Shown here piece by piece: positions 11,539-16,028 of a stretch of 23,118 nucleotides of DNA; the stretch's first letter is position 1, and each line of letters starts with the position of its first letter. The position numbers and the translations under genes were made by a program. Below the pieces are notes generated by a model. That model was not told where the DNA came from and ran no database searches. It was given only the letters and a program-made list of their open reading frames with translations. Origin of the DNA: Candidatus Dadabacteria bacterium (GTDB lineage Bacteria > Desulfobacterota_D > UBA1144 > Nemesobacterales > CSP1-2); NCBI GenBank assembly GCA_040289575.1, contig PSLL01000018.1:37564-60681 (forward strand). The letters run 5' to 3'.

Positions 11539-13617
11539 TTGAGCAATATAGATATAAAGAAGACTAGAAATATTGGGATTGTTGCCCATATAGATGCGGG
11601 AAAAACTACGACTACAGAGCGCATACTCTACTATACGGGTCTTACATATAAAATAGGTGAAGTCCATGAGGGCACTGCCACAATGGACTGGATGGAGCAA
11701 GAAAGGGAGCGTGGAATTACAATTACCTCCGCTACGACTACATGTTTTTGGCGTGATCACAGGATAAATATCATTGATACACCGGGACATGTGGATTTTA
11801 CAATTGAGGTCGAAAGGTCTCTTAAGGTGCTCGATGGCACAGTTGTTGTTTTCGACGGTGTAGGAGGGGTTGAGCCGCAGTCTGAAACGGTATGGCGTCA
11901 GGCCGACCGATATGCGGTTCCTCGAATTGCTTTTGTAAATAAGATGGATCGGATAGGGGCGGATTTCTTCAGGGTTATTGATCAGATTAAAAATAGATTA
12001 AATTCTAATCCTGTTTTTGTTCAAATTCCATGGGTTGAAGACGACGAGTTCAAGGGAATAATTGATCTTTTAGATATGAAGCTCATAGTCTGGGATGAAG
12101 ACTCTTTTGGGTCTCAATACGAGTTTGTAGAGATCCCGGATAAAGTAAAAGGCGAGGCTGCCAAAGACAGGGAAAAGCTCATCGAGTCCATTGCCGATTT
12201 AGATGAGGGAGTGATGGAGAAATATCTCAATGGACAGTCCATTACAAAAGAGCAGATAAAAAGCGTTCTAAGAAAATCCACTATTGAAATAAAGGCGGTT
12301 CCGGTTTTATGCGGTTCCGCGTTTAAAAATAAGGGTATTCAGACTCTTCTTGATGCAGTTGTGGATTACCTTCCTTCTCCAATAGATTTGCCGCCGGTTA
12401 AGGGAATAAATCCATATAATGGTCAGGAAGAAATCAGGCGCCCGGAAGAAACCGATCCATTTTCTGCGCTTGCATTTAAAATAATGACCGATCCATTTGT
12501 CGGACAGCTTACATATCTTAGGGTGTACTCAGGAAAGCTCAGTGCCGGAACCACTGTTTACAATTCAACGAAGGGCACAAGAGAGAAGATCGGAAGGCTC
12601 CTTCGAATGCACGCAAACAAGCGTGAGGAGATTAAGGAGGTAAGCGCGGGGGATATTGCCGCCGCTGTCGGTCTTAGAAACACAACTACGGGCGATACAC
12701 TCTCAGATGAAAAAAAGCCCATAATTCTCGAAAGCCTTCAATTTCCTCAGTCGGTCATCTCTGTTGCAATTGAACCGAAGACCAAGGCCGACCAGGAAAA
12801 GCTGGGGATTTCTCTCGGCAAGCTCGCAATTGAAGACCCTTCTTTTAAGGTGAGATACGACGAAGAGACTGGACAGACAATCATATCGGGTATGGGAGAG
12901 CTTCACTTAGAGATAATCGTTGATCGCCTAAGACGTGAATTCAAGGTGGATGCAAATGTTGGGAAGCCCCAAGTAGCGTATAGAGAAACAATTACCGTGC
13001 CTGCTCAGGCGGAGGGAAAATTCATCCGTCAGACAGGGGGACGCGGTCAGTACGGTCATGTAAAGATCAGGGTGGAGCCACGTGAAAGAGAAAGTGGATT
13101 CGAATTCATAGATGAGATTAAGGCCGGGGCGATTCCGAAGGAGTACATACCTGCTGTAGAGAAGGGTATTAAGGAGGCAATGGAGACAGGCGTTATAGCT
13201 GGGTATCCGGTTGTTGACATTGCAGTTAGACTCTATGATGGCTCTTATCACGAGGTGGATTCATCGGAGATTGCATTTAAGATTGCGGCATCTATGGCAT
13301 TTAAGGACGCCATAAGGCGCGCAGGGGCTATAATACTTGAGCCTGTTATGAGTGTTGAGGTTGTTGTACCCGAGGAGTTTATGGGGGCTGTAATCGGAGA
13401 CCTAAGTTCAAGGAGAGGGAAGATATTAGGCACGGAGCTTCGAGGGGGAATGCAGGCTATAAAAGCCGAGGTGCCCCTTGCAGAGATGTTTGGATACGCA
13501 ACCAATCTGAGGTCTATGACTGAAGGGCGGGGAACATTTACAATGGAGTTCTCTCACTACTCCAATGTTCCTGAGATGCTCTCTGAGGGAATTAAAGCCA
13601 GAGTAAAGGGTGTGTAA
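11539..13617 (+). CDS. fusA: Elongation factor G (TTG start)
   Basis: [48 protein letters not shown] start follows a GGGGG ribosome-binding site. Confidence 0.99.
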
Positions 13618-13666
13618 TCTATAAAATGTATATCGGGGCCAGCTAGCTAAAAAGGAGAAGAAGGTT

Positions 13667-14851
13667 ATGGCGAAGCAGAGGTTTGAGAGGAAGAAGCCAC
13701 ATTTAAACATAGGGACAATAGGGCATGTAGATCACGGCAAGACGACACTGACAGCGGCGATAACGAAGATATTAGAGAGGAGGGGGATGGCCAAGTTCAT
13801 ACCATTTGATGAGATAGACAAGGCACCTGAGGAGAAGGAGAGGGGGATAACGATAAACATAGCACATGTGGAGTATGAGACTGAGCGTAGGCATTATGCG
13901 CATGTGGATTGTCCTGGGCATGCTGATTATGTAAAGAATATGATTACTGGGGCGGCACAGATGGATGGGGCGATATTGGTGGTCAGTGCTCCTGATGGGC
14001 CGATGCCGCAGACGAGGGAGCATATACTGCTGGCTAGGCAGGTGGGGGTGCCGTACATAGTGGTGTGTTTGAACAAGGTGGATGCTATGGATGACCCAGA
14101 ACTGCTGGATTTAGTGGAGTTGGAGGTAAGGGAGTTGTTGACGAAGTATGGGTTTCCTGGGGATGAGATACCGATAGTGAGGGTAAGTGCGCTGAAGGCG
14201 CTGGAGGGGGATGCGGAGGCGGAGAAGCAGGTATTGGAGTTGATGGAAGCGGTAGACAGGTATGTACCTGAGCCTGTGAGGGATGTGGACAAGCCATTTT
14301 TGATGGCAATAGAGGATGTATTTACGATATCGGGTAGGGGTACGGTTGTAACAGGGAGGCTAGAGAGGGGGAGGATAAAGGCTGGGGATGAGGTAGAGAT
14401 AGTGGGTTTTAGGGATACGAGGAGGACAGTTGCAACTAGTTTGGAGATGTTCAGGAAGATACTCGATGATGCGGTGGCAGGGGATAATGTAGGGGTGTTG
14501 TTAAGGGGGATAGGGAAGGATGAGGTAGAGAGGGGGCAGGTGTTAGCGGCCCCTGGGAGTATAACTCCTCATACAAGGTTTAAGGCGGAGGTATATGTAT
14601 TGACAAAGGAGGAGGGGGGTAGGCATACACCGTTTTTCACTGGGTATAGGCCACAGTTTTATTTAAGGACTACGGATGTTACAGGGAGTATAAAGTTGCC
14701 TGAGGGGGTAGAGATGGTAATGCCTGGGGATAATGTGAATATGGAAGTGGAGTTGATAGCGCCGGTAGCAATGGAGGAGGGTTTGAGGTTTGCGATAAGG
14801 GAGGGTGGGAGGACTGTTGGTGCTGGGGTTGTAACTAAAATCATTCAATGA
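13667..14851 (+). CDS. tuf: Elongation factor Tu
   Basis: [52 protein letters not shown]. Confidence 0.99.
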
Positions 14852-14861
14852 GGAGTTCTAA

Positions 14862-15020
14862 ATGGGAGATAACGTAGTGGTCATTGCCCTTGCTTGTAGC
14901 GATTGTAAGAGAAGAAACTATTCAACGAAGAAGAACAAGCAGACACACAAAGAGAAAATAGAACTCAAAAAATACTGCAGATGGTGCAAACATCACACCC
15001 TTCATAAGGAGACTAAATAG
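14862..15020 (+). CDS. rpmG: 50S ribosomal protein L33 (zinc-ribbon, C+ form), 52 aa
   Basis: Below the ORF-track cutoff. Hand translation [52 protein letters not shown] has two CxxC pairs. An AGGAG site overlaps the tuf stop; canonical position after tuf. Confidence 0.97.
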
Positions 15021-15065
15021 GCTATAGAAGAAAAATCTAAGAGATTGCCAAAGGAGTGGGACTTA

Positions 15066-15139
15066 AGGGCAGTAGCTCAACTTGGTAGAGCACTGGACTC
15101 CAAATCCAGCGGTTGGGGGTTCGAGTCCCTCCTGCCCTG
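15066..15139 (+). tRNA. trnW: tRNA-Trp (CCA anticodon); 3' CCA not encoded
   Basis: Acceptor stem AGGGCAG/CTGCCCT, D arm GCTC..TGGTA..GAGC, anticodon arm CTGGA-CTCCAAA-TCCAG, T arm GGGGG-TTCGAGT-CCCTC, discriminator G followed by TAA. Canonical position between rpmG and secE. Confidence 0.97.
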
Positions 15140-15238
15140 TAATACTGATGAGGGCTAGCCACAGATAATACAGATTTTGTAGAAGTATTTAATTTTCTTC
15201 ATATATGCTCTGTATTGCCAATGGCTAAGAGGAAATAG

Positions 15239-15442
15239 ATGGAAAGAGTAAGAGAAGTCATAGATAGAACCATACAGTTCTTCAAAGACGTTCAAGTTGA
15301 GATGAAGCGTATATCATGGCCTGCAGTTAAGGAAACAGTGCGCTCGACCGGGGCTGTGATTTTTATTTCAATTCTTCTTGCGTCTTTCTTAGGATTGGTA
15401 GACTTTTTGTTTTCATTATTGGTTAAGTATATCCTGACTTAG
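15239..15442 (+). CDS. secE: Preprotein translocase subunit SecE
   Basis: FFKDVQVEMKRISWP motif plus one transmembrane helix; lies between tRNA-Trp and nusG. Confidence 0.95.
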   Translation: MERVREVIDRTIQFFKDVQVEMKRISWPAVKETVRSTGAVIFISILLASFLGLVDFLFSLLVKYILT

Positions 15443-15467
15443 GGGATAACGTAACGAAGGAATACGT

Positions 15468-16028
15468 ATGACTAAGAGAAGGTGGTATGTGGTTCATATA
15501 AATACTGGCTTTGAAGATAGAGTAAAAACATTGATTGAAGAAAGAGTCAAATTGGAGGGGCTTGAGGATTTAATTCATGAGGTATTAGTTCCAACTGAAA
15601 CTATTGTTGAGCCGACAAAAGTCGGGAGAAAAAAGACCTCGGTTAGGAGATTTTTCCCAGGATATATTCTGGTCAATATGGAGCTTAATGATAGAAGCTG
15701 GCATTTTATAAGAAGCATACCAAAGGTAATAGGGTTCGTAGGCGGTAAACTCAAAGAGGGAAAGATTGATCCCGATTCAGTCCCCGACATAGATGAAAAA
15801 GAGGTTATGAAGATAAAGAGGCAGATAGAAGAAGGAACCCTGAAACCGAAGCCGAGGCTTACATTTGAGAAGGGAGAGACTATAAGGGTTGTAGAGGGTC
15901 CTTTTGCGAATTTCTCTGGTGTTATTGAAGAGGTAAAGCCTGAAAAGGGAAAGGTTCAGGTTCTTGTTACCATATTTGGTAGAACGACGCCGATAGAGCT
16001 GGATTTTAATCAAGTGGAGAAGATATAG
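15468..16028 (+). CDS. nusG: Transcription termination/antitermination factor NusG
   Basis: [19 protein letters not shown] motif [26 protein letters not shown]. Confidence 0.98.

Follow-up and report, generated by a model that had tools for sequence, protein, structure and literature searches.

In a window of 23,118 nt from a Candidatus Dadabacteria metagenome bin (GCA_040289575.1, contig PSLL01000018.1, positions 37,564 to 60,681 of the forward strand), the gene tuf, which encodes the elongation factor EF-Tu, was found to be recoded with synonymous codons that avoid C and load G and purines. Among the other genes of this genome only groEL shows a comparable, weaker departure. The recoded state of tuf is actively maintained in each lineage of the order to which the genome belongs, and is neither a relic nor foreign DNA. 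With less than even confidence, we suggest that it is upheld by natural selection acting on the nucleic-acid composition of the two genes that the cell uses most heavily.

Textbooks use tuf as the reference gene for codon adaptation, and the "optimal" codons of many genomes are defined from it. Here, and in several other phyla of a comparison panel, tuf obeys another rule, that of avoiding C and loading G and purines, which ribosomal-protein genes do not follow. In lineages of this kind, a codon-adaptation index trained on tuf would be misleading. A literature search that left subscription journals mostly uncovered found no paper on C-avoiding, G- or purine-loading recoding of tuf, or on its sharing by groEL. 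Should selection on messenger RNA (mRNA) composition prove to be the cause, it would point to a constraint, overlooked by standard codon-usage theory, on transcripts of the highest abundance, with folding, Rho access and RNA-RNA interactions as candidates. Should the cause instead be tied to gene conversion, it would represent a new mutational or repair bias acting on concertedly evolving gene families, and would give bacteria a second, previously undescribed form of biased gene conversion, which would explain the recurrence of cytosine-starved tuf genes in several phyla.

Codon composition of tuf and groEL

The features of the window that bear on the recoding are given below, with C3 and G3 denoting the fractions of C and G at third codon positions.

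13667..14851, forward strand: tuf (EF-Tu, 394 aa), the recoded gene; C3 0.046, total C 12.3%, G 37.9%; EF-Tu 81-94% identical to relatives
13648..14859, forward strand: tract common to both tuf copies (a collapsed repeat), starting 19 nt upstream of the ATG and ending 8 nt beyond the stop; C 0.121, G 0.378
14834..14848, forward strand: last five sense codons of tuf (ACT AAA ATC ATT CAA), free of the bias although inside the shared tract
11539..13617, forward strand: fusA (EF-G), upstream neighbour and control; ordinary usage, C3 0.17, G3 0.27

Only 18 of the 394 sense codons of tuf end in C and 203 end in G, giving a C3 of 0.046 and a G3 of 0.515 against genome means of 0.21 and 0.24, respectively. 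Arginine is encoded by AGG (29/30), isoleucine by ATA (24/27), lysine by AAG (20/21), glutamate by GAG (35/38), glutamine by CAG (7/8) and glycine largely by GGG (28/36). A first-pass annotation, made from the letters of the window, had described this nearly C-less, G-rich signature, and every count that it gave was reproduced, including those of single 60-nt lines (4 C in 14341-14400 and 3 in 14701-14760 of tuf, 17 in 12661-12720 of fusA). The fusA line chosen is the C-richest of that gene, and C per 60 nt averages 11.0 in fusA (range 6-17) and 7.4 in tuf (range 4-12).

In a comparison that the annotation had called for, tuf is also the extreme of its genome (3.06 Mb in 126 contigs), having the lowest C3 (the next being 0.071) and the highest G3 among 2063 non-overlapping open reading frames (ORFs) of at least 150 aa. 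On a codon score of likeness to tuf, a measure that is circular for tuf itself and not for groEL, tuf lies about 9 standard deviations (SD) from the mean. When this score was scaled by length across 3119 ORFs of at least 70 aa, tuf reached a z of 11.2, groEL 6.4 and the next ORF 3.9, leaving groEL as the sole other discrete outlier. The groEL gene (C30:27363-29006) uses AGG in 25/29, ATA in 32/39, AAG in 37/50 and GAG in 47/57 of the respective codons, with a C3 of 0.10. Ordinary usage was observed for 30 ribosomal-protein genes (4530 codons; C3 0.168, G3 0.282), as well as for fusA and rpoB, dnaK, both groES genes and five hsp20 genes, and correlation with the codon shift of tuf was 0.62 for groEL, 0.26 for the ribosomal-protein genes and -0.07 for fusA and rpoB together. 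The idea of a signature of the heat-shock regulon was therefore rejected, with dnaK (score -0.69), groES (-0.77) and the five hsp20 genes all ordinary.

The neighbours of tuf in the window, leaving out rpmG, have C3 values of 0.10-0.23 and G3 values of 0.22-0.34. The earlier claim that the bias is confined to the gene thus stands for third positions of codons; judged by total GC skew, the bias has no sharp 5' border, the 3' end of fusA already showing values of 0.07-0.47. Antisense frames opposite tuf span only 61-121 aa.

Closer inspection of tuf revealed a consistent set of rules. The gene holds 146 C where its protein permits between 117 and 496, a position 8% along the synonymous range, compared with a mean of 52% in 80 other tuf genes. 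C is avoided at first codon positions as well, through TTR for leucine (20/29), AGG for arginine and AGT for serine (5/6). At free third positions the order of preference is G > A > T > C, with A tolerated after T or C (GTA 18, ATA 24, ACA 9) and shunned after a purine (GGA 0, AGA 0, AAA 1). In two-fold NNY codons T stands in place of C, except when the next base is A: C-ending NNY codons make up 10/22 before A and 2/44 otherwise in this gene (p 1e-4). Over 20 tuf genes of the order, their share is 70% when A follows and 19-28% when another base does. This rule is weaker but present in biased groEL genes, and was not found genome-wide, in fusA, in ribosomal-protein genes or in the tuf genes of the sister order. 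The EF-Tu proteins of the order also contain slightly fewer amino acids that need C in their codons (0.231 versus 0.256 in 80 other EF-Tus).

The escape of the last codons from the bias, noted in the first-pass annotation, extends across the order. Among 19 tuf genes of the order, the truncated tuf of G006 being excluded, isoleucine is ATA in 4/30 cases within the last five codons against 413/448 elsewhere (p 4e-22, with kin not independent), and lysine, glutamate and glutamine codons end in G in 10/24 against 1197/1329 cases.

The bias works at the level of nucleotides and not of individual codons or tRNAs. Among the evidence for this, two non-coding stretches attached to the biased genes share their composition, namely the 110 nt upstream of both tuf copies of G016 (C 0.04, G 0.32) and, in G015, the spacer of 61 nt between groES and groEL (C 0.10, G 0.38). 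The 42 tRNA genes detected with aragorn are single-copy except for Met-CAT (3), Gln-TTG (2) and Thr-CGT (2), and tRNA species with C34 and with G34 are both encoded. A G-quadruplex explanation was rejected, with canonical G3+ motifs absent from tuf and G-runs as in shuffles of its own codons. The purine-rich sense strand and the favouring of AGG and ATA recall the purine loading and the AGR and ATA codon signature of thermophiles, reportedly described by Lao and Forsdyke in 2000, by Lynn, Singer and Hickey in 2002 and by Paz et al. in 2004. Unlike that genome-wide signature, the recoding here concerns only tuf and groEL among 3119 ORFs, adds an extreme avoidance of C, and occurs also in small-genome relatives with an unbiased groEL.

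The recoded state is maintained across the order

Twenty full-length tuf genes were recovered from 30 relatives in the order. All 20 are C-poor (C3 0.04-0.24) and 19 are G-rich (G3 0.37-0.64), the exception being G029 (G3 0.23), while the GC content of the flanks spans 35 to 63%. Among its neighbours, tuf ranks first for G3 in 8/8 genomes and first for GC skew at third positions (GC3 skew) in 6/8. The favoured codon varies among relatives (GGG or GGT; AGG or CGN; ACG, ACA or ACT); constant are the avoidance of C-ending four-fold codons and the keeping of ATA, TTR and GTR, even beside flanks of 63% GC. Codon identity at conserved tuf residues between relatives is 0.42-0.68, compared with 0.40-0.60 predicted from composition, and neighbouring genes behave alike; with silent sites saturated, a dS-type test for silent-site constraint was uninformative. 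Given that silent sites have turned over while the bias stayed, the bias represents a maintained equilibrium.

An EF-Tu phylogeny placed the order (20 sequences) and its sister order (7 sequences) in one clade apart from 80 other EF-Tus (SH-aLRT 99), and EF-Tu identity declines with distance from 88-94% within the family to 81-85% within the order and 74-77% within the class. Single-contig relatives carry the same tuf bias, and the tuf of the window recurs in four independent assemblies, apart from two differences. The idea that the gene was acquired from a lineage whose whole genome has this usage, or that metagenome assembly created it, draws on the fragmentation of the genome, a 126-contig bin with some high-GC contigs, and on the resemblance of AGG/ATA/purine-rich usage to that found genome-wide in thermophiles. 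EF-Tu follows species groups, however, which refutes such an origin within the sampled taxa, and together with the saturated silent sites, the single-contig relatives and the four assemblies renders both forms of this idea scarcely credible; the phylogeny called for in the first-pass annotation thus excluded horizontal transfer.

The direction of recent change was examined at sites where the two tuf copies of one genome differ (10 in G009, 6 in G005 and 2 in G022), polarised with close relatives. Of the 12 sites that could be called, the change opposes the bias at 10 (five T>C, three G>T, one G>A and one A>T) and follows it at two (binomial p 0.039). New changes thus erode the bias, and something restores it or removes such changes. 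The mutational drive from C to T and from A to G on the coding strand, which the first-pass annotation had inferred, runs counter to these differences, and the preference for ATA and GTR lies beyond the reach of transitions, making such damage the least supported part of that proposal. In G009, 5 of the 10 differences between tufA and tufB (L113 and L114) are derived T>C changes, four in tufB and one in tufA; all four in tufB fall at third positions, as if the tRNA-linked copy were under weaker constraint.

Repeated tracts, copy number and candidate forces

Although the window contains one tuf, a second copy was detected in this genome, in line with an expectation of the first-pass annotation. 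Contig C28 opens with the last 55 nt of the tuf tract, followed by rpsJ; contigs from four public runs fork at 14859, to rpmG or rpsJ (X1, X2 and X4), and those from two runs (X3 and X4) also fork at 13648, to sequence other than fusA. The start of C28 and the forks at both tract ends show that the genome has two tuf copies that share 13648-14859 and were collapsed in assembly, the collapse implying that they are nearly identical. All 21 single-contig genomes of the order that were searched contain two full-length tuf matches, and in eight relatives the copies are 99.1-100% identical over 1181-1304 nt. Homology stops within about 20 nt of the gene in 7/8 pairs, and the edges of the bias coincide with these homology edges, as the annotation had anticipated. 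The remaining pair, that of G016, shares 110 nt more upstream (L121:3890-4000 and L122), a stretch that opens with a TTGACA-like box at both loci. What was duplicated or converted in G016 is thus a cassette in which tuf is accompanied by a putative promoter and by a leader that is rich in purines and nearly devoid of C.

Pairs of tuf genes in these contexts are familiar from enterobacteria, whose tuf genes use classical C/T-ending optimal codons. The tufA/tufB pairs of Salmonella and Escherichia coli evolve in concert and, like those described here, comprise two copies in a str-operon context and a tRNA-tuf-secE-nusG context. Duplicated, concertedly evolving tuf genes are well known, with reports from 6 phyla and 29 orders (PMC6053082), and the single use of the word "codon" in that paper is in the comment that optimised codon usage could be spread by conversion. 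The passages found in this and a related Salmonella paper (PMC6735719) mention no C-avoiding, G- or purine-ending recoding.

Variation among groESL operons provided an independent view of where the bias begins and ends. The GC3 skew of groEL is 0.5-0.8 in G010, G015, G011, G004, G005, the present genome (G000), G016 and G003, and about zero in G007, G018, G020, G021, G024, G026, G027 and G030, whose tuf genes, where recovered full-length, are still biased. groES lies 23-62 nt upstream of groEL. Only the two groES copies of G015 are biased (skew 0.71, ATA 9/11), and the two operons of that genome are 99.4% identical from the start of groES to the end of groEL. In G022, where groEL is weakly skewed, the identical tract spans groEL but ends 10 nt before reaching groES, which is unbiased; the downstream part of this tract was considered as a further case of C-poor DNA and rejected, proving to be a GGM tail and terminator that are not C-poor. 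In three cases (groESL of G015, groEL of G022 and the region upstream of tuf in G016) composition accordingly follows the repeated tract rather than the frame or the operon. Biased groEL genes were also identified as single copies, in G023 (a single contig with no fragments; ATA 26/32, third-position purine fraction, R3, 0.66) and in G016 (ATA 29/35, R3 0.67, skew 0.53, no fragments), each next to an unbiased groES. The annotation had named the same bias in other highly expressed single-copy genes as a refutation of its proposal, and the groEL of G023 is such a gene. The present genome contains a second, diverged groES-groEL operon (C49:2-407), which meets the contig end after 32 groEL codons and is 81% identical to the first (C30:27363-29329); the remainder of this groEL is not in the bin.

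Genomes with one and with two tuf copies were compared. Seven genomes of the sister order, in the same class (about 1 Mb in 6-20 contigs, 92-94% complete), each have a single tuf in the order fusA-tuf-rpsJ, with ordinary composition (G3 0.09-0.13, skew 0-0.11 but 0.40 in one, ATA 0.18-0.32); alternatively, their lack of bias could reflect weak selection in fast-evolving, reduced genomes. We also surveyed an arbitrary panel comprising the best 80 of a longer list of loci from scattered phyla, of which 79 genomes were used, measuring the GC3 skew of tuf minus that of flanking ORFs; one-copy calls in drafts may hide collapsed copies, and phylogeny was not corrected for. The mean excess was +0.15 in two-copy genomes (n=34) and -0.01 in one-copy genomes (n=45; Mann-Whitney p 0.008), and exceeded 0.2 in 15/34 and 7/45, respectively, or in 15/34 and 5/43 without two unpublished one-copy entries (G077 and G121, both above 0.2). 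Over their flanks, two-copy tuf genes gain 0.12 in G3 and 0.01 in C3, and the same tendency appears in Acidobacteriota and several Pseudomonadota. A rough pairing of neighbouring clades on the EF-Tu tree gave 11/15 pairs in the predicted direction (sign test p 0.12). Duplication by itself clearly does not suffice for the bias, as an excess is lacking in 19 of the 34 two-copy genomes.

According to the reading that we tentatively favour, both tuf copies and, more weakly, groEL would be held in the recoded state by selection for a C-poor, purine-rich sense strand or mRNA. C is avoided at each synonymous opportunity, with G and then A preferred at free third positions, and T replaces C in two-fold NNY codons except where it would meet a following A. 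Such an mRNA would fold weakly and would lack any C-rich, G-poor stretch for Rho loading, so that tuf and groEL could be made even when translation lags, and gene conversion between the tuf copies would spread and preserve the recoded state; in theory, conversion makes weak selection on a gene family more effective. Selection of this kind is consistent with an equilibrium that persists while new changes erode it, with the context rules and the exemption of the 3' end, and with a biased groEL in single copy. The predicted folding energy of tuf is -22.96 kcal/mol per 120 nt, compared with -27.9 +/- 1.3 for recodings with genome usage (z 3.8), and its folding is slightly weaker than that of shuffles of its own codons (z 2.2); the corresponding values are -22.4 for groEL and -26.6 +/- 2.9 for 40 random genes. 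A rho gene is present in the genome; at 12% C and 38% G, the transcript should serve Rho very poorly as a substrate, and its antisense very well. Two Salmonella papers describe control of tufB via Rho-dependent termination inside tufB (PMC6735719, PMC12360218).

Several observations weigh against selection on composition. Among seven groEL copies with a GC3 skew above 0.4 and a recovered groES, five stand beside an unbiased groES (groES ATA 16/47 versus groEL 133/185, p 3e-6), a pattern within one operon that an mRNA-wide benefit, such as protection from Rho, does not predict. The restriction of groES bias to a duplicated tract fits a tract-bound process better. Furthermore, the bias tracks tuf copy number in the sister order and the panel, which selection explains only indirectly. 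Tuf and groEL are predicted to lie at the weak-folding end of the genome without being extreme (about 1.3 SD from random genes), and G-runs, G-quadruplexes, Shine-Dalgarno-like and YC motifs were neither enriched nor avoided relative to own-codon shuffles in six tuf genes. The direction-of-change test rests on 12 sites, and the NNY-before-A rule could alternatively stem from repair; uracil-DNA glycosylase removes U best in A-U-A contexts.

The principal competitor, possible though doubtful in our estimation, modifies the idea of the first-pass annotation and invokes a directional process tied to homologous recombination or gene conversion. Through damage during copy-to-copy repair, to DNA while it is single-stranded or to a strand that always acts as the invader, or through strand-specific mismatch correction, the coding strand of a repeated tract would drift G-rich and C-poor, whether coding or non-coding, in the tuf of many phyla and the groESL of some genomes. 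The coincidence of tuf bias with the identical tract in every pair, including 13648-14859 here, favours such a process, as do the composition of the non-coding DNA within tracts, the contrast between groES of G015 and G022, the ordinary single tuf genes of the sister order, and both the excess and the clade pairs of the panel. It is harder to reconcile with the single-copy groEL genes of G023 and G016, with the last five tuf codons, which lie in the tract, and with the two-copy genomes that show no excess. Transitions cannot produce ATA 24 versus ATT 2, or GTR 36 versus GTY 6, and the polarised differences count against a mutational version, but not against biased correction. To our knowledge, no repair bias enriches a single strand in G relative to A and in T relative to C. 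GC-biased gene conversion was rejected, as it would raise C as well, whereas G3 is up to 0.51 and C3 down to 0.046. Conversion between tuf duplicates, as first proposed, thus retains the two copies, the coincident edges, the link to copy number and the groES of G015, and is opposed by the single groEL genes, the last five codons and the majority of two-copy panel genomes. The tract-bound process and selection may also act together.

Two further explanations appeal to expression itself. Ordinary translational selection for the best-decoded codons, so weak in slow growers that only the top one or two genes show it, is in our view unlikely. In its favour, tuf and groEL typically encode the most abundant bacterial proteins. 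Ribosomal-protein genes do shift weakly in the same direction in two-fold codons (AAG 0.59 versus 0.48, GAG 0.63 versus 0.55, CAG 0.73 versus 0.60, GAT 0.75 versus 0.65), the bias is specific to genes rather than operons (groEL and not groES; tuf and not fusA), and the avoidance of T before A at codon junctions resembles a codon-pair bias reported across life. Selected codon bias, for which a preference for major codons in highly expressed bacterial genes is said to have been described by Sharp and Li and by Sharp et al. in 2005, is likewise gene-specific, strongest in tuf, accompanied by a conserved protein and kept despite silent turnover. It differs in being shared by ribosomal-protein genes, which here go the opposite way or nowhere for ATA, AGG, GGG, TTG and GTR, and the preferred set (AGG, ATA, GGG, TTG and NNT over NNC) is reversed. 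The usual preference for C-ending codons is inverted for phenylalanine, tyrosine and isoleucine (TTC 3/13, TAC 1/9, ATC 1/27), with AAC at 3/7 for asparagine, and the first-pass annotation was right to call this usage, with its AGG and ATA, the opposite of the usual optimisation. The recoding appears to track base composition and not tRNA supply: tRNA gene dosage is flat and gives no signal, the preferred codon varies among relatives while C avoidance is constant, and attached non-coding stretches share the composition. GroES, moreover, is needed at roughly half the amount of GroEL, yet groES shows nothing. Transcription-associated mutational asymmetry, in which deamination strips C (and A) from the non-template strand of the most heavily transcribed genes and the template is protected or repaired, appears very improbable. 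The excess of G over C on the coding strand matches the known direction, T is found over C in NNY codons, and the transcribed, non-coding leader of G016 is C-poor. As in other asymmetries of single-strand exposure, such as that of the vertebrate mitochondrial heavy strand, one strand is G-rich and C-poor; unlike in them, T is not enriched, A is not consistently depleted, edges fall inside operons and recent changes oppose the bias. These operon-internal boundaries count strongly against it, groES being unbiased by groEL, and fusA, rpsJ and rpmG ordinary beside tuf. The sign of AT skew also varies (third-position A 0.34 and T 0.14 in G005, 0.15 and 0.38 in G004), the purine preference is left unexplained, and derived changes are mostly T>C. 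The abstract of an E. coli study reports an expression-dependent strand inequality of silent changes, which speaks for this explanation, and an enrichment of T>C, and not A>G, in highly expressed genes, which counts against it (bioRxiv 10.64898/2026.05.22.727198).

Gene order around tuf and minor observations

Downstream of tuf, the window continues with genes of the tufB-type context.

14862..15020, forward strand: rpmG (L33), first gene of the tufB-type downstream context; sequence read, and matched in the tufB loci of relatives
15066..15139, forward strand: tRNA-Trp(CCA), tufB-type downstream context (tuf-rpmG-tRNATrp-secE-nusG); aragorn, same order in relatives
15239..16028, forward strand: secE and nusG, ordinary codon usage, tufB-type context; from ORFs, codon counts and the order in relatives

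Canonical contexts, rpsL-rpsG-fusA-tuf-rpsJ and tRNAs-tuf-(rpmG)-tRNATrp-secE-nusG, were found in 7/8 relatives with both loci. The window instead shows fusA-tuf-rpmG, and C28 tuf-rpsJ, and the contigs of the public runs are too short to pair the flanks. A contig of run X3 joins upstream sequence other than fusA to tuf-rpmG (depth 6), and the tRNA Thr-Tyr-Gly-Thr cluster that lies 5' of tufB in relatives is missing from this bin. Hybrid junctions were seen only in draft assemblies, namely the present genome, G005 (both junctions), G013 and G053. The order in the window is probably one path through the collapsed repeat; the first-pass annotation had counted it in support of conversion, a use that this simplest explanation would remove. 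Alternatively, by analogy with Salmonella, where an inversion between tufA and tufB yields a hybrid fusA-tuf-secE junction (PMC6735719), it could represent a real inversion. The hybrid junctions of the other drafts (L115/L116 in G005, L003 in G013 and L178 in G053; fusA-tuf-rpmG or tRNAs-tuf-rpsJ) would be either recurrent mis-joins across the repeat or real inversions between tuf copies. Collapsed tuf repeats probably create false gene orders in metagenome bins.

Within tuf, positions 14360 and 14421 are G and A in all four public assemblies, compared with C and G in the window. Both changes are non-synonymous (Leu232 CTA to Val GTA; Arg252 AGG to Lys AAG) and may distinguish the two tuf copies or different strains. 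Summed contig depth at 15022-15223, which includes the tRNA-Trp, exceeds flanking depth 3- to 30-fold in each of the four runs, presumably reflecting conserved tRNA sequence of other organisms.

Elsewhere in the genome, a number of short contigs (C41, C94, C58, C102, C45, C107 and others) carry ORFs with a third-position GC content above 0.8, far from the genome mean, and are probably bin contamination. A second dnaK-like gene (C122:8069-9857) is split into two frames, covering HSP70 positions 1-340 and 343-599, as a result of either a frameshift or a sequencing error.

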